A stretch of 64,000 nucleotides of DNA from a phage (GCA_025832235.1 GCA_025832235.1_3649.1); one strand, 5' to 3'. Positions 953 through 64,000 are shown, numbered from the stretch's first letter. Notes: a model not told the origin generated them from the letters alone. Translations and numbers: made by a program.

Positions 953-1027
953 GTTACTAACCTCTGTTCCAGAGCGAACATAAAACATACGAATCCTTAT
1001 AGTACAGATATTTAAGTTTTTACTGGT

Positions 1028-1378
1028 CTAACCAGTTGTTGACATTCGAATAACTTCTTCTGGTGGCAAAACTTTGGAAAATGTGCATCTTTTACCTCTC
1101 CCTTGTGTGGATATTTCAACCACTCCCGCACATTCTAAAGTTTTAACGCACGCTGCTGCTTTTGTTTTCTTTATTCCAACATCTGCTGCAATTTTCCTTG
1201 TGCTGGGTGTGAAGCGTGAACTTCCTCCAAGCTTATACCAGTTGTGCAGGTAGCAGTATACGATCTTGTCATACAAGTCAAGAACAACAACCTCCCCAGT
1301 TGTGTCATTCAAAACTTTTGACATAGATAGTATTTCAAGGGGGACTTTAAGATATAGCAGCTTATCCCCATCTTTCAT
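1028..1378 (-). CDS. putative winged-helix DNA-binding protein
   Basis: ORF with AGGAG RBS; helix-turn-helix-like segment STRKIAADVGIKKTKAAACVKTLECAGVV followed by basic wing; function inferred. Confidence 0.45.
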   Translation of the reverse strand: MKDGDKLLYLKVPLEILSMSKVLNDTTGEVVVLDLYDKIVYCYLHNWYKLGGSSRFTPSTRKIAADVGIKKTKAAACVKTLECAGVVEISTQGRGKRCTFSKVLPPEEVIRMSTTG

Positions 1379-1425
1379 ATCTCCTGATTCTCCTTGTGTG
1401 GCAATTTTCTTTAAAATAGCAGGGA

Positions 1426-1980
1426 TTACTCCCCGCTGTCAATAGCAAAACTCATTGCAATACGGTATGCCTCTTCTAATGGTAAGAGTCTCCCCCACAC
1501 ATCCCAACCGACATCAAACTGTCTGCCAAACAACTGTTGTGTGGTTCCGTGAGCATGACCGAACAGTTGGACTGATCCGTGAGGCTTTCTGTTCCACTTT
1601 GCAAACTGGTAATGGCTCATACAGATCAAATTCTTGTTGTGGCGAAGCTCGTAATAATCTACAACCTCATGACCGAACTCTTTCATAATTCTGACAGTCG
1701 TCCTTGTGTCATGGTTACCACGAACAAGAATAATATGTCCGTTCAACATATTTAGAACATCTGGGAGCAATTTGTTAATATTCTTATCATTAGTGCACGC
1801 AATATCTCCTAAGTGAAACACAGTGTCTGCAGGTGACACAACAGAGTTCCACTTGGTGATGATCCCCGCATTCATACTGTCAAGATTGTGATCATACTGA
1901 GATCTGTGTTTTTGACATGAGTCAAACTCCATGACCCGCTGGTGGAGAAAGTGTGTGTCGCTTGTTACAAAGTATTTCAT
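1426..1980 (-). CDS. calcineurin-like metallophosphoesterase (lambda-phosphatase/Pnkp-phosphatase type)
   Basis: motifs SDTHF, GDIA, GNHD, GHAH; start moved to ATG at 1980 (MKYFVTSDTHF) with GAGGAA RBS. Confidence 0.75.
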   Translation of the reverse strand: MKYFVTSDTHFLHQRVMEFDSCQKHRSQYDHNLDSMNAGIITKWNSVVSPADTVFHLGDIACTNDKNINKLLPDVLNMLNGHIILVRGNHDTRTTVRIMKEFGHEVVDYYELRHNKNLICMSHYQFAKWNRKPHGSVQLFGHAHGTTQQLFGRQFDVGWDVWGRLLPLEEAYRIAMSFAIDSGE

Positions 1981-1987
1981 ACATTCC

Positions 1988-2398
1988 TCATTTAAGTTTA
2001 ATGCAGTTTTTAAGCTGGCGTTCCATACGATCCACAACCCTGTCTGGAACATCATGAATGCTTTTACTACCATGGCGGTTTTCAACCACGATTACGGTAT
2101 AACTATACCCATGACTGATCGCCATGTCAATATATTCTTGCACATATTTTTCTTTTGTAAATGTATTACTTACCACGATACGGTCGTATCCCATACGCAT
2201 CATATCTTCTACGTTATCTTTGCACCATTTTGCTGCAAGTGTTACTTTACTTGCATCCCAGTTGTAATTGCCGTCATCGTCGTACCAGAACATGTCGTTC
2301 TCAAAATGTGGGTACAGACCTTCTAAAGATAGCGCATTTGCCAGTGTTGATTTGCCAGACCCTGGTAGACCACGCACGATATATAGCATTTTAGACAT
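1988..2398 (-). CDS. polynucleotide kinase-like P-loop kinase (T4 Pnk kinase-domain type)
   Basis: P-loop GLPGSGKST, later VVSNTFT resembling T4 Pnk; start moved to ATG at 2398 (MSKMLYIV) with GGAGGG RBS; stop 7 nt before phosphatase start. Confidence 0.65.
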   Translation of the reverse strand: MSKMLYIVRGLPGSGKSTLANALSLEGLYPHFENDMFWYDDDGNYNWDASKVTLAAKWCKDNVEDMMRMGYDRIVVSNTFTKEKYVQEYIDMAISHGYSYTVIVVENRHGSKSIHDVPDRVVDRMERQLKNCIKLK

Positions 2399-2498
2399 AG
2401 TAACCCTCCGTTTTAATTTCAATGATAGTATACCTAACTGTTTTGTTAATTTCAAGTGTTGACACTGGGTTATTTGTGTGGCAGGATAAAGGGACAAA

Positions 2499-3434
2499 AT
2501 GACAAATGAGGAACGTATGATGAAGTATTTTAATGCAGACGACCTAGTTGACAAAGGTCTTGTAACCAGCAGATATTACCCAGATCTTGGGTTAAAGATC
2601 TATAAATATGCCAGAAAAGTATTCTACAACAACTTATGGCATTTGTCTCCTCGATTACTGGAGTGCCGAGGCATTGTTGTCGGTAATGAAGGAAATGTTG
2701 TGGCATGGCCCTTCACAAAAGTGTTTAACTTGGGAGAAAACTCCACCAACCTGCCTGACAATAAGCTTGTGACGGCGGTAGAGAAAAAGAACGGATTCCT
2801 TGGTGTGGTGTCATCTCATAAAGGTGAACTATTGTTCTCAACAACCGGGTCTCTTGATTCCCCATATTGTAACCTTGCAAAGGAAACCATCCAGGAGCAA
2901 TGCGGTAATTTAGATCTTATCAAGAAGGTTATGGGCAATGAAAACATGACATTCATGTTTGAAATTTGTCACCCTTCAGATCCGCATATTGTTCAGGAAG
3001 ATCATGGCGCATATTTGATAGGTTGCAGATATAATGATTCTGGAATAATGCTACCAGAAGCCGCTTTAGATGGGATTGCCAAATACCTTGGTGCAAAACG
3101 TCCTCACACTGTGCGTGAAATTCCGTTCAGCTATGCAAAAGAGTTAGCTGCAGAAACAAGAGGTGAAGGATATATGATTCGTAAGCCTTACTACCCTTAT
3201 GATCTGCAGTTGAAGATCAAGTCTCCATACTATCTGGCACGAAAGGCCGTAATGAGGGGTAAAGCTTGGAAGATTTGGGATGATGATATCTTTAAACGTG
3301 TTGACGAAGAGTTTTACGGCATGGTAAACTTCATTCGTAACAACTACACAGAGGATGTATGGAACTGCCTCCTGGAGCAGGAACGCCGTGAGATACTTGA
3401 CTGCTATTTCCACAACGAGGACTATATGCAATGA
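2499..3434 (+). CDS. rnlA: RNA ligase 1 (T4 RnlA-like)
   Basis: ECRGI, KVFNLGEN and nucleotidyltransferase motif I EKKNG, motif IV EGYMIR, motif V KIK; resemblance to T4 Rnl1 from memory. Confidence 0.7.
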   Translation: MTNEERMMKYFNADDLVDKGLVTSRYYPDLGLKIYKYARKVFYNNLWHLSPRLLECRGIVVGNEGNVVAWPFTKVFNLGENSTNLPDNKLVTAVEKKNGFLGVVSSHKGELLFSTTGSLDSPYCNLAKETIQEQCGNLDLIKKVMGNENMTFMFEICHPSDPHIVQEDHGAYLIGCRYNDSGIMLPEAALDGIAKYLGAKRPHTVREIPFSYAKELAAETRGEGYMIRKPYYPYDLQLKIKSPYYLARKAVMRGKAWKIWDDDIFKRVDEEFYGMVNFIRNNYTEDVWNCLLEQERREILDCYFHNEDYMQ

Positions 3435-3781
3435 AGAAGTTGATTGTGTGGCTGGATGACTTGAGAGATCCGTCAAATTACGGGCTCCAAGACGCTGTTT
3501 GGCTAAAGAATTCCTCCGAGTTTATAGATTTTATTAACGATAATAGAAAGCTCTACAGACGCGTTTCTGAGTGGCACATGGACAACGACCTTGGAGAGTT
3601 GTTCGAAGGGTACGATTGCCTATCTATGTTGGAGGAAAAATTTGTATTTGGTAAGCCCCCTGTAGTTGACAACGTGAAGATTTTCGTGCATACTTCTAAC
3701 CCATCAGCGGCTCGTAAATTCATGCTTGCAGCTGACTCGTTTAAAAAGTTTGGAATAGAGATTAAACAAAACATCTACTGA
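3431..3781 (+). CDS. hypothetical protein, translationally coupled upstream of sirtuin
   Basis: ATGA overlap with rnlA stop; ends 9 nt before Sir2 start. Confidence 0.5.
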   Translation: MKKLIVWLDDLRDPSNYGLQDAVWLKNSSEFIDFINDNRKLYRRVSEWHMDNDLGELFEGYDCLSMLEEKFVFGKPPVVDNVKIFVHTSNPSAARKFMLAADSFKKFGIEIKQNIY

Positions 3782-3789
3782 GGACACTT

Positions 3790-4551
3790 ATGCGACGACT
3801 GATTATTATCTCCGGTGCTGGTTTGAGCGCTGAATCTGGTATTCCCACTTTCCGATCTGGTAGCACTGCAATGTGGGAGAATTTCAGCATCGATGAGGTG
3901 TGCAACATCCACACCTTTGCCAAGAACTACTACAAGGTGCATGACTTTTACAATGCACGTCGTGTAGCTCTAGGCGGTGTTGAGCCTAACCTTGCACATC
4001 TTCGGATCGCTGAGTGGTATTCCCGCTGGTCTGGTCGTGTGATCAACCTTACCACCAATGTAGATGATTTGCTGGAGCGTGCGGGTGTAAAACATGAAGA
4101 TATTTTACATGTTCACGGGTATTTGCCAGAAATAGTCTATGAGGACGATGAAGGAAGTGACGTCATTAAGGACATTGGATACTCTGAGGTAGATGCAGGA
4201 AAGTATACCTGGGTTAAACCTAATGTGGTGTTCTTCGGAGAAGTAGCTCCGAAGTATACAGACATGTATGACCTGTTGACTTCTCTTACAAGCAATGATA
4301 TGGTTATCCTTGTAGGGTGTTCCAACACAGTTATCAATTTTAACTGGGAGCTATTCCCTGCCTGCAATAAGGGAACCAAACTACTGATCGTTAATAAATA
4401 CGACTCACAGCATCTAGAGGAGAATGGCATTTCACGTAGTGATATTTACCAGTATGAGGATCGCGGCATCCCAGTTTGGTTTAACGGTGCGGTTGATGCC
4501 TTCTCTGATAAAACATTCATTGAGACCGTAGAAAACTTTATGGAACTTTAA
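3790..4551 (+). CDS. Sir2-family NAD-dependent deacylase / ADP-ribosyltransferase
   Basis: sirtuin signature GAGLSAESGIPTFRSG near N-terminus, later FFGE; GAGGA RBS. Confidence 0.8.
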   Translation: MRRLIIISGAGLSAESGIPTFRSGSTAMWENFSIDEVCNIHTFAKNYYKVHDFYNARRVALGGVEPNLAHLRIAEWYSRWSGRVINLTTNVDDLLERAGVKHEDILHVHGYLPEIVYEDDEGSDVIKDIGYSEVDAGKYTWVKPNVVFFGEVAPKYTDMYDLLTSLTSNDMVILVGCSNTVINFNWELFPACNKGTKLLIVNKYDSQHLEENGISRSDIYQYEDRGIPVWFNGAVDAFSDKTFIETVENFMEL

Positions 4552-4564
4552 AAGGAGACCTTTA

Positions 4565-5278
4565 ATGCTGAATACTAAATTAATTGACAACCTGGAAAAA
4601 CTGTCCCAACCTGAAAACTACCTTTGGTCTGCCAACTGGGTGGAAAACTGGAACCGTGTGGCAGCTAAAGTGAAAAAATCATACACACCGTTCGAATTAC
4701 AGCTTAGCTTCATTGAGGAAGAGTTCAATGAAGTTTTGGAAGAGCTGGAAAAAGGGGATGGTGGAGATCACCTGCTAAAAGAGGCCTGCGATCTTCACGT
4801 TGTCACAAGTTATGCCGCTTATCTTGTTAATGACAATCACGAAAAGTGGTCAAACCTGTTTGATAATCCACGAGGTCTTAAGTTCAAGATCGGTGAGTTC
4901 TATGATACACTGATCGCTGCGAAAAACACCTCTAAGCAAAGAGCATCCGCTTACCGCTTAGCAGAGTTGTCAACAGCTTTGCTGTTCCAGCTTCGCGGCG
5001 ATGTGTGCGGGATGATGCGTAAGGTTCTCAAATCGAATGACAGCAAGTTTGCACGGGTCAACCATCTACGGTATTCACACGGTGCCAGTGCAGATATGCC
5101 TGCTGAACAACTCATCGAGTTGGAGATTAAAGATCTTGAGCGACGCTTTGATGGTCGATATGAAGGTTTTGTTGCTAAGGAAGAATTCTACAACGGTAAT
5201 AAAGTTATCATATTCCTTGACAGTAAAGGTAAGATCATGAAGCCTTCGAGCTTCAAGGATGTAGCAGAGTATATTTAA
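4565..5278 (+). CDS. hypothetical protein, possible MazG-like NTP pyrophosphohydrolase N-domain
   Basis: EExxE...E..D pattern (IEEEFNEVLEELEKGD...LLKEACDL); followed by hairpin at about 5284-5300. Confidence 0.4.
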   Translation: MLNTKLIDNLEKLSQPENYLWSANWVENWNRVAAKVKKSYTPFELQLSFIEEEFNEVLEELEKGDGGDHLLKEACDLHVVTSYAAYLVNDNHEKWSNLFDNPRGLKFKIGEFYDTLIAAKNTSKQRASAYRLAELSTALLFQLRGDVCGMMRKVLKSNDSKFARVNHLRYSHGASADMPAEQLIELEIKDLERRFDGRYEGFVAKEEFYNGNKVIIFLDSKGKIMKPSSFKDVAEYI

Positions 5279-5341
5279 CAACATGGCCGGGATTACCCGG
5301 CTTTACTTGTTGTGGAAAGTATGCAAGTGAGGCAGATAGTT

Positions 5342-5650
5342 ATGTACAAGCACTCTAGAGATCTTGAAAACGATGCTGTGTTTGGGGATCAGATGAAAGA
5401 GTTGGTTAAACTTATAGGCAGGATAGAGGATAAGTTTGACACTAAGATCTACATCGACAGCAAAGTATTCAACCACAAAATATGGACAAATCTGTGTGTT
5501 GGACTACATGGAGATAAAGATGTGGTAAATTTAGTTGTAATTAAGTTCATAGTGTGGCAGAATAAAACTATAAATTATTACGATCCACACCTGCTTGTTT
5601 ACCCAATAAAAGATCTATTAGATAAGGAGGACTGCAATGCCGTTATTTAA
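5342..5650 (+). CDS. hypothetical protein
   Basis: ORF; start moved to ATG 5342 with GAGG RBS (ORF-track start 5312 lies inside a hairpin). Confidence 0.4.
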   Translation: MYKHSRDLENDAVFGDQMKELVKLIGRIEDKFDTKIYIDSKVFNHKIWTNLCVGLHGDKDVVNLVVIKFIVWQNKTINYYDPHLLVYPIKDLLDKEDCNAVI

Positions 5651-5906
5651 TCTTGCTAAACCTGTAGAAGCACACCAGTTTGACGGAAGCTCTTCATCAG
5701 TATCTGATCTGCAACGGTGGATTGATACAGGTGTGTTTACATCGTCACCTGTTCGGACCAGAGATCTTCGTCGCATGTGTGAGCTTGTAGAGCCGTTTGG
5801 TAACCTAGTCTTGTACCAGGGTGATTGGCTTGTTGATTTTATGGGGGACTGGTTGGTAATGAGTAAAGAAGAGATGTTTAAAATTTTTAAGGAAGAGGCC
5901 GAGTAA
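5637..5906 (+). CDS. hypothetical protein
   Basis: ORF in compact same-strand array. Confidence 0.4.
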   Translation: MPLFNLAKPVEAHQFDGSSSSVSDLQRWIDTGVFTSSPVRTRDLRRMCELVEPFGNLVLYQGDWLVDFMGDWLVMSKEEMFKIFKEEAE

Positions 5907-7189
5907 TGCATCAAATCAAAACAACACTGTACGCACTGAACAAAGATGGCAGCTACCAACAGTGGAAAGTATTCACGGATGGTGATAAGGTTATCGTAGA
6001 GTTTGGCAAGCTTGATGGTAAACTGCAATACAAAGAGACGATCTGCACACCTAAGAACGTGGGTCGCGCCAATGAAACTACAGCTGAGCAACAGGCCGAG
6101 CTGGAAGCGATCAGTAAGTGGGAAAAACAGGTCCGACTCGGGTACGTGGAGAGTATGGAAGATTGTGAGCAAGGTGTTGATCTTTTACCCATGTTGGTGC
6201 ATGACTACCTGAAGCGTGGCAAGGCACTTAAATTACCTTGCTGGATCTTGCGTAAGTTAGATGGCCTTCGTCTACTTGTTGTTTTCCAGAATGGTGAGCC
6301 TAAATTTATTTCCCGTGGTAATAAGTCCTACCCTATTCAAGGAAAGCTTCTGGAGCAACTTCGCTCTTTCCACCTAACCACCGGGATTAAACAGCTCGAC
6401 GGAGAGCTCTATATTCATGGTCTACCTCTGCAGAAAATAGTGTCTCTTGCTAAACGGTGGCGCACACAGGAAGAAATTCAGGCCGAGATCGATAAAGACT
6501 ACAAGGCAGATAAAAAACGCCGTCAGGCTGCGATTAAAGCAGGTTTAGCAACATACAAAAACTTCAACAAGGTGGACATTCCTGTTGATGTTGAGCCTGT
6601 TCGTGATGATTTGCGTTACGGAGGGTACTGCAGCTACGACTTAGAGTATCATATTTTCGATATTCCTAGCGATAAGGTGTGGTGGGATCCTGAAACAGAG
6701 TCTGGTCGCTGTAAGGATCTTATGGAGGCAAACGGTGCTATTACTTCTTTGATGCTTGATCATATTAAGGTTGTTGATGCAGAGCTTGCATATACGGTTG
6801 ATCGGTGCGAAGAGTCTGTTGGTATATTTATGTCTGAAGGATATGAAGGTACCATTATGCGTAACTTCTGTGGTAAATATGAGTATGGTCAGCGAACATC
6901 TGAAGCATTGAAATGGAAAAAGTTCAACGACGCAGAGGTGAAAGTTATTGACGTTGAGAAAGATAAGAATGATGAAGGTGTTCTTATCTGTGTTGACAAG
7001 GAAGGTGTTGTTGTTAAAATGAAGATGAAAGGCACGCACGAGGAGCGTAGCTATGACAGGATGCAGGAAATGATCGGAAAGTTCGTCACCTTCAAATATC
7101 AAGCGAGGACAGAAGACAACAACTACCAATTCCCTGTCGGTATCTGCGTCCGAAATGTTAACCCAGATACTTGGGAGGTTCTGGAATGA
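5906..7189 (+). CDS. ATP-dependent DNA ligase
   Basis: motif I KLDGLR, DGELY, motif IV EGTIMR, motif V LKWKK; AAGGAAGAGG RBS. Confidence 0.8.
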   Translation: MHQIKTTLYALNKDGSYQQWKVFTDGDKVIVEFGKLDGKLQYKETICTPKNVGRANETTAEQQAELEAISKWEKQVRLGYVESMEDCEQGVDLLPMLVHDYLKRGKALKLPCWILRKLDGLRLLVVFQNGEPKFISRGNKSYPIQGKLLEQLRSFHLTTGIKQLDGELYIHGLPLQKIVSLAKRWRTQEEIQAEIDKDYKADKKRRQAAIKAGLATYKNFNKVDIPVDVEPVRDDLRYGGYCSYDLEYHIFDIPSDKVWWDPETESGRCKDLMEANGAITSLMLDHIKVVDAELAYTVDRCEESVGIFMSEGYEGTIMRNFCGKYEYGQRTSEALKWKKFNDAEVKVIDVEKDKNDEGVLICVDKEGVVVKMKMKGTHEERSYDRMQEMIGKFVTFKYQARTEDNNYQFPVGICVRNVNPDTWEVLE

Positions 7190-7342
7190 TGTAGGGAGGT
7201 TCAGTAGATAACGGTAGCCAATTGAATAAGTGTTTTCAATTTGCACCTACATATACCCTGATGTATGCACTGTGCAACCTAGCCACACCACACAGTGGTG
7301 CTGATCGGGGCCTCGTTATGAGTAAACTGGAGAGTATGAAAA

Positions 7343-7840
7343 ATGAAACTTGATAAAAATGTTCAACGAAAAGCTTTCTTGGATCTTATTGGCTGGGCAG
7401 AGGGAACAACAACCCACCCTGCCACCAAATGTGGAGGATACGATGTTGTAGCATACGGGATGGACGGAAAACCTGAAATCTTTACAGATTTTTCCACGCA
7501 CCCTTTTGCAAACGGTCGCCCTGGTAAAGTGTTTAACTCAAAAGGGCAAAGAACTACAGCCTGCGGTAAATATCAATTTCTTGTCAAATACTGGGAACAC
7601 TACAAAAAACAGCTTAAGTTGCCGGATTTTGGACCAGATAGTCAGGATAAGTGGGCGATCCAATTGATCAGGGAACGTAAAGCACTTGAAGATATAGATA
7701 ACGGTCATATTAAATCTGCTATACGTAAGACCTCAAATATTTGGGCTTCGTTCCCATACAACAAGTACGACCAAAATCCAAAAACCATTGACAAGTTGCT
7801 TAAGAAATTTGTAGAGTTTGGAGGTGTTGTTCTGGATTAA
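7343..7840 (+). CDS. lambda R-type endolysin (lytic transglycosylase, GH104)
   Basis: near-colinear with lambda R as recalled: QRKAFLD...GW.EGT...GYDV...FTD.S.HP...TA.G.YQ...W..Y.KQL.L.DF.P.SQD..A.Q.I.ER.AL..ID.G.I..AI...SNIWAS.P. Confidence 0.85.
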   Translation: MKLDKNVQRKAFLDLIGWAEGTTTHPATKCGGYDVVAYGMDGKPEIFTDFSTHPFANGRPGKVFNSKGQRTTACGKYQFLVKYWEHYKKQLKLPDFGPDSQDKWAIQLIRERKALEDIDNGHIKSAIRKTSNIWASFPYNKYDQNPKTIDKLLKKFVEFGGVVLD

Positions 7841-7894
7841 TGATCAAAAGGTAGGCCACTCGCCTACCTTGCTACACCAGAGGTGTGTTGAGAT

Positions 7895-8656
7895 ATGACG
7901 ATACATTTCTTTTTTAATGATCACTACCCTTATTGGTACAAGGATGGTGATCTAATCTTTTGGAAACCTGGCTACAGTAGGAATGGAAATAGGGCGGGAC
8001 ACTACAACAAAAAGACTGGATATTTCCAAGTGTACAATAAGCTGACAAATGTTAAACGTGGCAGACATAGGGAAATTTTTGACATGTTTTACGGATGTGT
8101 CACAGATGCTTGGCATATTGATCATATTATCTCTAAGAAAAATTCTACTAACGGAGTGCCTGTAGACAAGATAGAAAACCTTCAAATGTTGAAGCCTTGG
8201 GATAACTACTGTAAGAGAGCCTTGGAAAATGTGCAAAGCAATAACACTTCTACAGTGACTGGTGTGGTATGGCTAAAAAGAGAGGGTAAGTGGAGGGCAA
8301 GTAGAAGGATAAATAGGGTAAATGTTAGGTTGGGAGATTTTGACACTTTCGAAGAGGCCAAGGCTAGGATTGAATGGTCAATAGCCAACCCGGAAGAGGC
8401 TTTAAAGATAGTTCCAAACCCGCACAAGAATAATATCCTGCCCGGTATTGATTGGTCTAAGAAAGATACCTGTTGGAGGGCACGAGATAATAAAGGAAGA
8501 AACTTAAGGTGCTTCAACGACAGGAAGTGGCTAAATCCATGGTGGGAGGCAGTTTGTGCAAGAAAGTCTTGGGAAGTAAACTGTCTCTACGGAGGGATGT
8601 CACTAACTGAATGGAAGTTATCCAGAGGCTATCCAAGACCTTGTGTTGAGGATTGA
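7895..8656 (+). CDS. HNH homing endonuclease with AP2-type DNA-binding domain
   Basis: HNH core WHIDHI...N...NLQML; AP2-like VTGVVWLKREGKWRASRRINRVNVRLGDFDTFEEA; free-standing between endolysin and next gene. Confidence 0.7.
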   Translation: MTIHFFFNDHYPYWYKDGDLIFWKPGYSRNGNRAGHYNKKTGYFQVYNKLTNVKRGRHREIFDMFYGCVTDAWHIDHIISKKNSTNGVPVDKIENLQMLKPWDNYCKRALENVQSNNTSTVTGVVWLKREGKWRASRRINRVNVRLGDFDTFEEAKARIEWSIANPEEALKIVPNPHKNNILPGIDWSKKDTCWRARDNKGRNLRCFNDRKWLNPWWEAVCARKSWEVNCLYGGMSLTEWKLSRGYPRPCVED

Positions 8657-63282: not shown

Positions 63283-63558
63283 CAATAGTTCAGGTAGGTC
63301 GTTAAGCTACCCCGCACCATTACGTGCATAGCCATACGTTTTCACGTAGGATCGGACCATCTCATATTCCTATGATAAGCAACCACAGGAATCCTCCCAT
63401 TTCGACCGCACTTGCTGGTCTACTTCCTTTCGGAATGGCCTCTGAGCGTTCGCTCTTTTGAGCGCTTCGTTGCGGATTACCTTGCCATAAGGTTTAGGCT
63501 TCCCGCAGTTAAAGAGGTTATTCGACATAGATTACTCTATGAAGCCACAATGTTATTT
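63283..63558 (-). ncRNA. group I self-splicing intron in DNA polymerase gene (no internal ORF)
   Basis: 5' exon ends CAU, intron ends G; elements ACUGCGGGAAGCC (P), GUAAUCCGCAACG (Q), GUAGACCAGC (R) and GAGAUGGUCCG (S); length restores frame. Confidence 0.7.
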
Positions 63559-64000
63559 ATGGTAATAAATAATACGACGAACACCTTCATCGTACCACCC
63601 ACGCTTCACCATCTGGCGGTGCATGAGTATTCCAACTAAGTCACACAGCGATGCACCACCATTTTGTTGGTATGCATTAAGTAAAGAGTGTTTAGATCTG
63701 GTCCAGATAGCATGACCATCAAAAGAGTAGATAAACTTCTTACCCGTTGCTTCCCAGAATTTCTCCAGATCTTCTTTACGCCCCTTAAGACCAGGGTTGG
63801 CATCCCAGAGTGCATCGATTACCCTTTGTCCCAACTCTGGAGAGATGTCCAGCATATCTGCAACTTTATCTTTTTGTGCCCCATACATAACCCCATACGT
63901 GATAGGTTTACCGTCGTTACGGGAAATCTCCTTGCCTGCTACAGAAGAGTAAGCTTTGGCGTTATTACAGTTACCGCACACTGCCACTTTACCATTCCTT
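63559..64000 (-). CDS. family A DNA polymerase, 5' exon (partial, continues beyond window end)
   Basis: motif B-like region ...AKAYSSV...YGVMYGAQ... and NAYQQNGGASLCDL; ends ...VRRIIYYH at the splice site. Confidence 0.7.

Follow-up and report, generated by a model that had tools for sequence, protein, structure and literature searches.

The window, the whole 64,000-nucleotide stretch of DNA analysed here, comes from an rV5-like Vequintavirus and encodes a predicted RNA-repair module that consists of three separate polypeptides: a P-loop kinase of the polynucleotide kinase (Pnk) clade, a calcineurin-like metallophosphoesterase and a divergently transcribed Rnl1-type RNA ligase. The module is genuine and ordinary, has been described before, and probably constitutes a phage-encoded heal-and-seal RNA repair system directed at host-cut tRNAs. 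The conserved core of the neighbourhood is this trio, and in some phages and bacteria its members are fused to one another.

Organization of the locus

The phage is 98.7% identical to phage slur16, and 123 related phage genomes share 90-99% DNA identity with the window. The locus contains the following features:

1426-1980, minus strand: metallophosphoesterase, 184 aa (ATG at 1980-1978, stop at 1426)
1988-2398, minus strand: putative Pnk-clade kinase, 136 aa, without a fused phosphatase domain (Pfam, PHROG, profile and fold)
2399-2516, no strand: divergent intergenic control region with predicted promoter elements
2517-3434, plus strand: Rnl1-type ATP-dependent RNA ligase, about 305 aa (the ORF opens at 2499)
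3431-3781, plus strand: cREC (cyclic-phosphate-processing receiver-like) protein (Pfam PF20274, 3.1e-15)
3790-4551, plus strand: Sir2-family protein without zinc-ribbon cysteines (Pfam SIR2, 5.5e-27)
4565-5278, plus strand: MazG-like all-alpha NTP pyrophosphohydrolase homologue (phrog_671, 5e-22)
5285-5302, no strand: GC-rich hairpin, a terminator-like site on both strands
5906-7189: separate ATP-dependent DNA ligase (Pfam search of the window)

The initial annotation described a kinase ORF with the motif GLPGSGKST, a 7-nt gap, a phosphoesterase and a divergent ligase with the motifs ECRGI and EKKNG, and all of these elements are present where they had been placed. The three ORFs are evidently not chance reading frames, given the Pfam matches above the gathering score, the PHROG matches and the 123 relatives. 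The gap between the kinase and phosphoesterase genes is exactly 7 nt (1981-1987), with the kinase stop codon TGA at 1990-1988. A GGAGG Shine-Dalgarno sequence lies upstream of the kinase start, and that of the phosphoesterase, GAGGA, shares nucleotides with the kinase stop codon, an arrangement suggestive of translational coupling of the phosphoesterase to the kinase. The true start of the ligase is more likely at 2517 or 2520 than at 2499, given the GAGGAA at 2508-2513, the family consensus start MKF/YN and the equivalent of 2517 used in the GenBank records of the relatives; the divergent intergenic region would then span about 100-120 nt. This region contains a sigma-70-like minus-strand promoter (TTGAAA-17-TATACT, 2455-2427), at the same site as a predicted promoter in the annotation of phage Gotham, and a TTGACA on the plus strand at 2459-2464. 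The same annotation places a terminator at the site matching the 5285-5302 hairpin, which is predicted to close a ligase-cREC-Sir2-MazG transcription unit. The original boundaries of the module, 1426-3434, thus include the trio and are too narrow, because the ligase is predicted to be co-transcribed with the genes for cREC, the zinc-less Sir2 and the MazG-like protein.

The cREC gene overlaps the ligase stop codon by 4 nt, and its product contains the invariant residues D9, D10, D51-N52-D53, S89 and K96. The Sir2 protein has invariant GAGxS, R22, N90, D92 and H109-G110 with no conserved CxxC pair, and scores under every NCBIfam deacylase cut-off. The MazG-like protein, annotated in slur16 as a 'nucleotide pyrophosphohydrolase', has no Pfam or NCBIfam match. 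The window contains no tRNA genes; the sole Rfam match, a group I intron at a distance of 60 kb, is unrelated, and PADLOC defence models gave weak P-loop matches only.

Gene neighbourhoods of this kind were reportedly first described, in all likelihood, by Burroughs and Aravind in 2016 (NAR). The Sir2, T4-like ligase, cREC, kinase, MazG and phosphoesterase genes, all located within 1426-5278, make up the type 2 sirtuin-centred phage RNA-repair neighbourhood, with Escherichia phage V5 and Proteus phage Mydo as prototypes, for which Sir2, cREC and MazG have been predicted to mediate NAD+-dependent 2'-phosphate removal and clearance of the ADP-ribose by-product (Iyer, Burroughs, Anantharaman & Aravind 2022, Viruses 14:1977; PMC9503650). 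In that work, the kinase is termed a 'nucleotide kinase' and the phosphoesterase 'occasional' (PMC9503650). The module is therefore already known, having been annotated and predicted in print for phage V5 (PMC9503650), and the value of the present analysis lies in consolidation, to which it adds the firm placement of the kinase in the Pnk clade, the trio as the core, and fusions that make the pathway directly testable.

Identity of the kinase, phosphoesterase and ligase

The kinase matches the Pfam family AAA_33 (3.4e-10, above the gathering score) and, among the PHROGs, phrog_2071 (1e-57) and phrog_505, 'polynucleotide kinase' (3.8e-10). Its Walker A motif (residues 10-18) conforms to GxxGxGK[ST]; the invariants of the family are G15, K16, S17, T18, D35, N78, T79, E106, N107, H109 and H115, and R108 is kept in at least 90% of the members. 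Single-sequence phmmer searches of the PDB with the kinase or the ligase retrieved no T4 proteins, and family profiles were needed. The kinase profile showed full-length matches to Pnkp1, PSTK, T4 Pnk and CthPnk (5e-5 to 4e-4), whereas adenylate, shikimate and gluconate kinases matched it in the P-loop only. In the hhalign comparison with T4 PseT (95.4% probability), the invariant D35 is aligned to D35 of T4 Pnk, the general-base aspartate after strand 2. S84-D85-T86 of T4 Pnk, an S-x-T motif in contact with the 5' nucleotide, aligns to S77-N78-T79, where N78 and T79 are invariant. The position of R38, which is essential in T4 Pnk and binds the phosphate 3' of the terminal nucleoside, is occupied by W38 and is aromatic across the kinase family (hhalign). 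Foldseek searches with the AF2 model (pLDDT 86) yielded CthPnk and T4 Pnk as the best matches (TM 0.72-0.78), compared with 0.46-0.60 for small-molecule kinases. Sequence and model together support the placement of the kinase nearest to the T4 and Clostridium polynucleotide kinases, not the nucleotide kinases.

The phosphoesterase matches Metallophos_2 (1.7e-6) and Metallophos (4.1e-6), both above the Pfam gathering score, as well as phrog_547 (5e-51). The binuclear metal motifs D8-x-H10, G58-D59, G88-N89-H90, H123 and G141-H142-x-H144 are invariant in 36 homologues. The best PDB match of the profile is aq_1665 (1XM7; 4.5e-28), followed by weaker matches to GpdQ, YfcE, MJ0936 and Rv0805, and there are sub-threshold matches to the ligase-associated PdeM/MPE (2.4e-4; 6nvo in the PDB, 0.003). 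Neither lambda-phosphatase nor the Pnkp phosphatase appears among the PDB matches at E<=0.01. By these profile matches, the protein belongs to the aq_1665 subfamily and not to the lambda-phosphatase/PrpE/Pnkp subfamily; it is the lambda-phosphatase/CthPnkp type that has proven RNA 2',3'-phosphatase activity. Solely on gene context, we propose that the phosphoesterase is an end-healing enzyme that acts on 2',3'-cyclic phosphate or 3'-phosphate. Searches of all ORFs of the window with T4 PseT, its HAD domain, RnlA and the RnlA C-domain returned nothing at E<=1, so that, at the low sensitivity of phmmer, the window apparently encodes no T4-type HAD phosphatase elsewhere.

The ligase matches RNA_lig_T4_1 (PF09511) over positions 1-227 of 227 (6.4e-15; 56 bits against a cut-off of 28.3) and a PHROG at 1e-66. 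Its family profile matches T4 Rnl1 (2c5u) at 8.8e-13, hhalign aligns the two at 97.5% probability (6.5e-12), and T4 Rnl1 is the top Foldseek match (E 4e-12) of the AF2 model (pLDDT 91), with 19-21% identity in the structural alignment. Numbered from the ATG at 2499, ECRGI corresponds to residues 55-59 and EKKNG to residues 95-99. The invariant residues R57, K74, F76, K96, G99, E155, E223, G224, K239 and K241 correspond, in this order, to R54, K75, F77, K99, G102, E159, E227, G228, K240 and K242 of T4 Rnl1. These are 10 of the 12 residues of T4 Rnl1 that mutational work has established as catalytic or essential (positions checked against the T4 sequence); the other two, D101 and K119, are replaced by invariant N98 and T116. 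The C-terminal part is different. Motif V is followed by no more than about 65 helical residues, a T4-type all-helical tRNA-specificity C-domain of about 120 aa was not found in the ligase, and the hhalign alignment ends at ligase residue 247 (T4 residue 248), with no detectable kinship to T4 Rnl1 beyond the nucleotidyltransferase domain. The score against the T4 RnlA equivalog model (NCBIfam TIGR02308) is 39.3 bits, under the cut-off of 242, which indicates a related subfamily rather than an equivalog.

Two checks had been set beforehand, namely, that the kinase might profile as a nucleotide kinase and the ligase as a DNA ligase. In the first case, profile, hhalign and fold all point to polynucleotide kinases as the nearest relatives; in the second, profile, hhalign and Foldseek all give T4 Rnl1, and a distinct DNA ligase is encoded at 5906-7189. 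Neither check spoke against the reading given in the initial annotation, which is supported. The calcineurin-like phosphoesterase gene, described there in place of the HAD domain fused in T4 Pnk, is likewise present, and the binuclear metallophosphoesterase motifs of its product are conserved.

Synteny and domain fusions

The kinase-phosphoesterase-ligase trio, rather than Sir2, is the conserved core of these neighbourhoods. Of 83 viral loci with a member of the ligase family (35-89% identity), 76 have the kinase and 65 the phosphoesterase, in most cases in the adjacent, co-directional order MPE-LIG-KIN. Clustering of the ligases at 70% identity yields 41 non-redundant lineages; within 2 kb of the ligase, 33 of these carry the kinase, 34 the phosphoesterase and 28 both. 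Sir2, cREC and MazG accompany the ligase in only 3-5 of the 41 lineages.

Single KIN-LIG proteins of 421-432 aa, which combine the Pfam domains AAA_33 and RNA_lig_T4_1, are encoded at 13 phage loci, which fall into 2 of the 41 lineages. A conserved ORF of 229-236 aa upstream of these fusions was tested as a cryptic phosphoesterase and rejected. In Cardiobacteriaceae, a KIN-LIG fusion is followed by a phosphoesterase gene, and Leptolyngbyaceae cyanobacteria encode proteins of 712-763 aa with the domain order kinase-Metallophos-RNA_lig_T4_1. The N-terminal 425 aa of the cyanobacterial fusion match the bacterial Pnkp model TIGR04075 (4e-53), and its phosphatase matches Pnkp/PrpE, unlike the phosphoesterase of the window. 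A Hen1 methyltransferase gene was found neither in the window nor beside the cyanobacterial trifunctional gene. Together, the synteny and the fusions back the functional linkage of the three proteins that the initial annotation had assumed.

Phages without the ligase nearby also conserve the kinase and phosphoesterase genes as a paired cassette. Six kinase homologues were sampled in other phage lineages: in three, a phosphoesterase of the same family comes directly next (E ~1e-49) and the ligase is absent within 4 kb, and a further two adjoin the ligase. An ORF of about 410 aa that follows the cassette in other phages was considered as a cryptic ligase and rejected, having no Pfam or PDB match and showing HExxH rather than ligase motifs. 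The phosphoesterase family is large (8084 representatives at E<=1e-30), and all four of its distant members that were sampled have neither kinase nor ligase nearby. A search for phosphoesterase fusions in 1.84 billion representatives produced few long matches (429-498 aa), all without a ligase or kinase domain.

Predicted repair pathway, alternatives and known systems

The activities, substrate and trigger that we infer for the module can be outlined as follows. A host metal-independent endoribonuclease would cut RNA, most plausibly in the tRNA anticodon loop, leaving 2',3'-cyclic-phosphate and 5'-OH ends; such cleavage is established for T4 and PrrC. The 136-aa kinase would phosphorylate the 5'-OH via K16/S17 of the P-loop, with D35 as the general base, and the coupled metallophosphoesterase would strip the 2',3'-cyclic phosphate in the manner of the corresponding domain of bacterial Pnkp. 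The Rnl1-type ligase, adenylylated on K96, would then seal the 3'-OH and 5'-PO4 ends. The kinase and phosphoesterase genes would thus form a 'split Pnkp' cassette with its own promoter, divergent from the ligase operon. The assignment of anticodon-nuclease-cut tRNA as the presumed target is by analogy to T4; we know of no anticodon nuclease that restricts rV5-like phages. In phage Bas54, which has the same layout, transposon insertions are tolerated at most TA sites of the ligase (56/60), kinase (33/36) and phosphoesterase (26/27), and the mutants show no fitness change on one clinical isolate (log2FC +0.3 to +0.4, q>=0.75; 10.1101/2025.11.20.689424). The three Bas54 genes are dispensable on laboratory E. 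coli, which fits an accessory counter-defence role like that of T4 pseT. Points that weigh against the heal-and-seal reading are the aq_1665 affinity and the large, often unlinked family of the phosphoesterase, W38 in the kinase, N98, T116, the short C-terminal part and the low equivalog score of the ligase, and the unchanged fitness of the Bas54 mutants on the clinical isolate.

The separate DNA ligase raises a different, quite unlikely possibility, that the kinase and phosphoesterase heal 5'-OH and 3'-phosphate nicks in DNA for this enzyme, encoded 2.5 kb downstream. Of the 83 RNA ligase loci, 45 also encode an ATP-dependent DNA ligase, as a rule at a distance of 1-2.5 kb and in the same orientation; DNA is a further substrate of T4 Pnk, and the phosphoesterase shows the sub-threshold similarity to the DNA-damage nuclease PdeM/MPE. 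However, the PdeM/MPE matches span the generic GD/GNH motifs only, a terminator and two further ORFs precede the DNA ligase gene, and the fusions and the tightest adjacency involve the Rnl1-type RNA ligase, never the DNA ligase. The cREC and Sir2 neighbours, furthermore, point to cyclic-phosphate and NAD chemistry.

It also seems distinctly improbable that the cassette acts on small molecules, be they nucleotides, 2',3'- or 3',5'-cyclic nucleotides or cyclic-oligonucleotide immune signals, with the ligase close by merely through clustering of early accessory genes. Over its full length and by fold, the kinase is closest to polynucleotide and tRNA kinases, with nucleotide kinases matching through the P-loop only or at TM<=0.6; the general base D35 of T4 Pnk is conserved, its S-x-T motif has a counterpart, and covalent kinase-ligase and kinase-phosphoesterase-ligase fusions exist. 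These observations have to be set against the 3 of 6 kinase contexts that have no Rnl1 ligase within 4 kb, a phosphoesterase family far larger than that of the ligase and often unlinked to it, the weak similarity of the phosphoesterase to the phosphodiesterases GpdQ, YfcE, MJ0936 and Rv0805, and the name 'nucleotide kinase' (PMC9503650). It is extremely unlikely that the ligase homologue serves mainly to catalyse tail-fibre attachment, as T4 gp63 does in its second function. GenBank and PHROG do use the name 'RNA ligase and tail fiber protein attachment catalyst', and rnlA is needed for growth on K-12 in T4 and Bas37, but the name has been passed on through homology alone, the Bas54 orthologue, unlike rnlA of T4 and Bas37, is non-essential (56/60 TA sites disrupted), and the ligase gene belongs to an early-type operon whose other members encode RNA- and NAD-processing enzymes and is not found among tail genes, its product having a C-terminal region without detectable relation to that of T4.

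A further reading, to which we assign a low probability, is that repair in the rV5 lineage follows the logic of the eukaryotic Trl1 and Tpt1 rather than that of T4. In this scheme, opening of the 2',3'-cyclic phosphate by the phosphoesterase or cREC would yield a 2'-phosphate end, which the short Rnl1-type ligase would join; the zinc-less Sir2 would take off the 2'-phosphate with NAD+, and the ADP-ribose cyclic phosphate formed as a by-product would be cleared by cREC and MazG. To our knowledge, NAD+-dependent 2'-phosphate removal has never been demonstrated for any sirtuin. The fungal residues H227, R334 and R337 have no assignable counterparts in the phage ligase, since the C-terminal regions of the two enzymes resist alignment; in Trl1, this His-Arg-Arg triad, located partly in the C-domain of the enzyme itself, enforces the 2'-PO4 end (PMC11404444). 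A related, similarly doubtful possibility is that the aq_1665-type phosphoesterase and the 130-aa kinase may form a widespread 'split Pnkp' end-healing cassette in many phages, even those without the ligase.

Returning to the heal-and-seal reading, tRNA-cleaving defences are now recognised as common and, as far as we know, T4 Pnkp/Rnl1 is the only phage countermeasure based on RNA repair that has been proven by experiment. The module of the rV5 type would add a second one of different construction, in which kinase and metallophosphoesterase are split, the Rnl1 is minimal and the NAD+-linked accessories are optional; since phages of this group are employed in therapy and biocontrol, it could affect the range of hosts that they overcome.

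Compared with T4 Pnkp (PseT) and Rnl1 (RnlA), the rV5-type module has the same predicted activity set and a kinase of the same P-loop clade; the ligase shares the catalytic R, K-x-F, the motif I lysine, E, EG and KxK, and, as with the Bas54 genes, T4 pseT is non-essential on laboratory hosts. The kinase differs in being a stand-alone 136-aa protein without R38, the fused HAD (DxDxT) phosphatase of T4 is replaced by a separate binuclear metallophosphoesterase, and the ligase, shorter by about 70 aa, carries N and T at the positions of D101 and K119, respectively, and is without the tRNA-specificity C-domain. Clostridium thermocellum Pnkp, of the Pnkp-Hen1 system, likewise brings together a kinase of the Pnk clade, a metallophosphoesterase of calcineurin type and an adenylyltransferase/ligase; the phage kinase has its best fold match in CthPnk, and cyanobacteria fuse a Pnkp-like kinase-phosphatase (TIGR04075) to the ligase family found here. 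In the window, by contrast, the activities would reside on three polypeptides, the ligase is Rnl1-type (PF09511), the phosphoesterase belongs by profile to the aq_1665 subfamily and not to the lambda-phosphatase/PrpE-like one, and Hen1 is absent. The type 2 neighbourhood of Iyer et al. comprises the same six genes in the same phage group; their account centres on Sir2, whereas our ligase-based census gives weight to the kinase and phosphoesterase, and we place the kinase in the polynucleotide-kinase clade. Fungal and plant Trl1 (LIG-KIN-CPD) with Tpt1 share the heal-and-seal logic and the association with an NAD+-using enzyme, and the Trl1 LIG domain is a strong Foldseek match to the phage ligase (E ~1e-11); unlike in the phage module, the 3' end is healed by a 2H cyclic phosphodiesterase, not a metallophosphoesterase, and the NAD+ enzyme is Tpt1, not a sirtuin. 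In Mucorales, a small stand-alone RNA 5'-OH kinase acts in trans with a separate, sealing-only ligase, which provides a precedent for the division of labour predicted here (PMC11571804, PMC10946435).

Layout and families of the three putative repair genes

The window belongs to an rV5-like myovirus of the genus Vequintavirus; its bases 1000-7200 show 98.7% identity to Escherichia phages slur16 and slur12 and match 123 phage records at 90-99%. The three ORFs that the initial annotation assigned to a split Pnk-type RNA repair module, with the P-loop, the 7-nt gap, the ECRGI and EKKNG motifs and the ligase on the opposite strand, all lie where they were placed. Together with a separate DNA ligase found by domain search, they are:

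1988-2398, minus strand: P-loop kinase, 136 aa, GLPGSGKST at residues 10-18
1426-1980, minus strand, as the kinase: phosphoesterase, 184 aa, ATG at 1980-1978, starting exactly 7 nt past the kinase stop
2499-3434, plus strand, opposite to the kinase: RNA ligase ORF, ECRGI at residues 55-59, EKKNG at 95-99
5906-7189, plus strand: ATP-dependent DNA ligase

The GAGGA Shine-Dalgarno sequence of the phosphoesterase overlaps the kinase stop codon. The ligase more probably starts at 2517 or 2520 than at 2499, as indicated by a GAGGAA at 2508-2513, by the consensus N-terminus of the family and by how relatives are annotated. Close relatives carry the GenBank labels 'RNA ligase', 'polynucleotide kinase' or 'ATPase', and 'phosphoesterase'; the module is thus already annotated in public records, and a publication has described it as an RNA-repair system predicted for these phages.

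The ligase matches Pfam RNA_lig_T4_1 (6.4e-15) over all 227 profile positions. A search of the PDB with the single sequence did not reach T4 Rnl1, whereas the profile of the 37-member family did (8.8e-13), and hhalign aligns residues 50-247 with T4 Rnl1 47-248 at 97.5% probability. The first structural matches of the AlphaFold model (pLDDT 91) are to T4 Rnl1 (E 4e-12, TM about 0.6), followed by the Rnl3 and fungal Trl1 ligase domains, with DNA ligases far lower. The family invariants R57, K74, F76, K96, G99, E155, E223, G224, K239 and K241 align with T4 R54, K75, F77, K99, G102, E159, E227, G228, K240 and K242, respectively. However, T4 D101 and K119 are replaced by an invariant Asn and an invariant Thr, and motif V is followed by about 65 helical residues in place of the 120-aa tRNA-specificity domain of T4 Rnl1. 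These differences, along with a score of 39 bits against a cut-off of 242 for the NCBIfam T4-RnlA equivalog model, mark the protein as a member of a short, distinct Rnl1-type subfamily (1681 clusters at E<=0.001) and not an RnlA orthologue.

The kinase is recognized in Pfam only as a generic AAA_33 and in PHROGs as 'ATPase' (1e-57) and 'polynucleotide kinase' (3.8e-10). Its 38-member profile produces full-length matches to Capnocytophaga Pnkp1, the tRNA(Sec) kinase PSTK, T4 Pnk and Clostridium thermocellum Pnk, whereas adenylate, shikimate and gluconate kinases match the P-loop alone. In the hhalign alignment with T4 PseT (95.4% probability), D35 corresponds to the general base D35, S77-N78-T79 to S84-D85-T86, and R108 to a lid arginine; the position of T4 R38 is occupied by W38. 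The AlphaFold model (pLDDT 86) reaches TM 0.72-0.78 to CthPnk and T4 Pnk, compared with 0.46-0.60 to small-molecule kinases. Profile, alignment and predicted fold thus speak against a nucleotide kinase and place the protein in the polynucleotide kinase clade, an assignment added by the present analysis.

Conservation and fusions of the trio

We examined 83 loci, namely, 80 viral loci with ligase relatives (35-89% identity) and three metagenome loci, searching their ORFs with profiles of the window proteins. Of these, 76 contain the kinase and 65 the phosphoesterase, typically in the order phosphoesterase-ligase-kinase, directly adjacent and co-directional; the window's divergent layout reflects a local inversion that is particular to the rV5 lineage. 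Clustered at 70% identity, the ligases fall into 41 lineages, of which 33 have the kinase and 34 the phosphoesterase within 2 kb of the ligase; in 28 of them, both genes are that close.

Naturally fused proteins of two or three domains are a further addition of this analysis. The kinase and ligase form a single protein in 13 loci (2 of the 41 lineages). In a scan of bacterial genomes, such a fusion, followed by the phosphoesterase, was found in Cardiobacteriaceae, and Leptolyngbyaceae cyanobacteria encode chromosomal proteins of 712-763 aa in the order kinase-metallophosphoesterase-Rnl1-type ligase. In the latter, the N-terminal 425 residues match bacterial Pnkp at 4e-53, and the domains are arranged as in the characterised Clostridium Pnkp, here joined to the same ligase family as in the window; no Hen1 neighbours this gene. 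Among the loci encoding the trifunctional protein (L094, L101, L115), that of Leptolyngbya sp. PCC 7375 (L101, 3726-5864) has an RtcB ligase gene (7466-8647) 1.6 kb downstream.

Six kinase homologues were sampled from other phages: in three, a phosphoesterase of the same family comes directly after the kinase and no ligase lies within 4 kb, and two more adjoin the ligase. Thus, the kinase-phosphoesterase pair behaves as a unit, a 'split Pnkp', that is joined by the ligase. This role does not cover the whole phosphoesterase family: all four sampled distant homologues have neither a kinase nor a ligase nearby. In three loci of another phage lineage (L125 4001-6326, L126 4001-6374, L127 4001-6320), the cassette precedes a conserved ORF of 403-417 aa with an HExxH-like motif (IAHEIKHKFDKQ) and no Pfam or PDB match; NUDIX and DUF192 genes lie upstream in L125 and L126.

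Neighbouring genes and transposon data

At its start, a cREC gene (PF20274, 3e-15) overlaps the stop of the ligase; it is followed after 8 nt by a Sir2 homologue (5.5e-27; 3790-4551, plus strand), after another 13 nt by a MazG-like gene, and by a hairpin terminator at 5285-5302. Only 3-5 of the 41 lineages have these genes alongside the ligase; the trio, not the sirtuin, is the conserved core, a point also added here. This neighbourhood has been described by Iyer, Burroughs, Anantharaman and Aravind (Viruses 2022; PMC9503650), with Escherichia phage V5 as the prototype, and the sirtuin was predicted to remove RNA 2'-phosphates as KptA/Tpt1 does. We found no published biochemical or genetic test of this prediction, which, if true, would be the only surprise for specialists. 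The phage Sir2 retains the NAD-binding GAGxS, R22, N90/D92 and the catalytic H109-G110, falls far under every NCBIfam deacylase cut-off and lacks a conserved CxxC...CxxC zinc ribbon, since only C38 and C177 are invariant among the cysteines of 12 homologues. In several phages, ligase-kinase genes lie beside genes for NAD+/PRPP salvage (PRPP synthetase, NAPRTase) and a Macro domain (L129 3187-7768, L130 2684-8396, L040 12509-14433, the last with a second, Rnl2/DraRnl-like RNA ligase), a sirtuin-independent link between RNA repair and NAD+.

Elsewhere in the surroundings, an HTH/DUF6945 protein (1028-1378, minus strand, 116 aa) with its own predicted promoter is encoded just downstream of the phosphoesterase, and a group I catalytic intron lies at 63333-63568, minus strand (Rfam RF00028, full-length model, 64.7 bits against a gathering threshold of 50, E 4e-14). 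It has been proposed that phages counter tRNA-targeting defences both with tRNAs of their own and with RNA repair. The tRNA genes of slur16 (Arg-TCT, Tyr-GTA, Ser-TGA and others; L001 1-486, slur16 95309-95876) are clustered on the strand of the phosphoesterase gene, about 3 kb away from it, which corresponds to a place about 1.5-2 kb to the left of window position 1; none of them is inside the window.

Essentiality data come from a transposon-sequencing preprint on Vequintavirus Bas54, in which the lengths of the orthologous genes and the spacers are identical to those in the window.

Transposon disruption of Bas54 orthologues (gene: disrupted TA sites, class)
RNA ligase: 56/60, non-essential
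Polynucleotide kinase: 33/36, non-essential
Phosphoesterase: 26/27, non-essential
Sirtuin: 48/51, non-essential
MazG-like: 35/40, non-essential
cREC: 16/21, intermediate

None of the six changed significantly on one clinical isolate (supplementary table of the preprint). The data fit an accessory counter-defence role, the screened hosts being ones without a cyclic-phosphate-generating RNase. The DNA ligase orthologue is non-essential (69/73), and that of the HTH/DUF6945 protein has 'intermediate' fitness, in contrast to the dispensable repair genes.

Probable function of the module and comparison with T4

The phosphoesterase is very probably an active enzyme because all binuclear metal motifs are invariant in 36 homologues. 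Its proposed removal of 2',3'-phosphates from RNA ends is suggested by genomic context alone and is, as a further point added here, the weakest link: the uncharacterised Aquifex protein aq_1665 is the nearest relative with a solved structure (4.5e-28), lambda phosphatase and the Pnkp phosphatase are absent among the PDB matches, and the family, almost always stand-alone, is very large, with 8084 representatives at E<=1e-30. The next PDB matches are weak, to the phosphodiesterases GpdQ, YfcE, MJ0936 and Rv0805. Action of the kinase-phosphoesterase cassette on small molecules or cyclic nucleotides appears unlikely, and we give a similarly low probability to healing of DNA ends by the same two enzymes for the nearby DNA ligase. 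A role of the RNA ligase in tail-fibre attachment is highly improbable: the Bas54 ligase is dispensable, contrary to an essential role like that of T4 gp63.

Heal-and-seal RNA repair is the best-supported reading and, in our assessment, a likely one: the kinase would phosphorylate the RNA 5'-OH, the metallophosphoesterase would clear the 2',3'-cyclic phosphate, and the ligase would seal the ends through K96-AMP. The interpretation in the initial annotation stands. The analysis establishes what the genes are, together with their catalytic residues, their folds, their synteny and their fusions. The predicted activities, the putative substrate, tRNA, and the putative trigger, an anticodon nuclease, are taken by analogy from T4.
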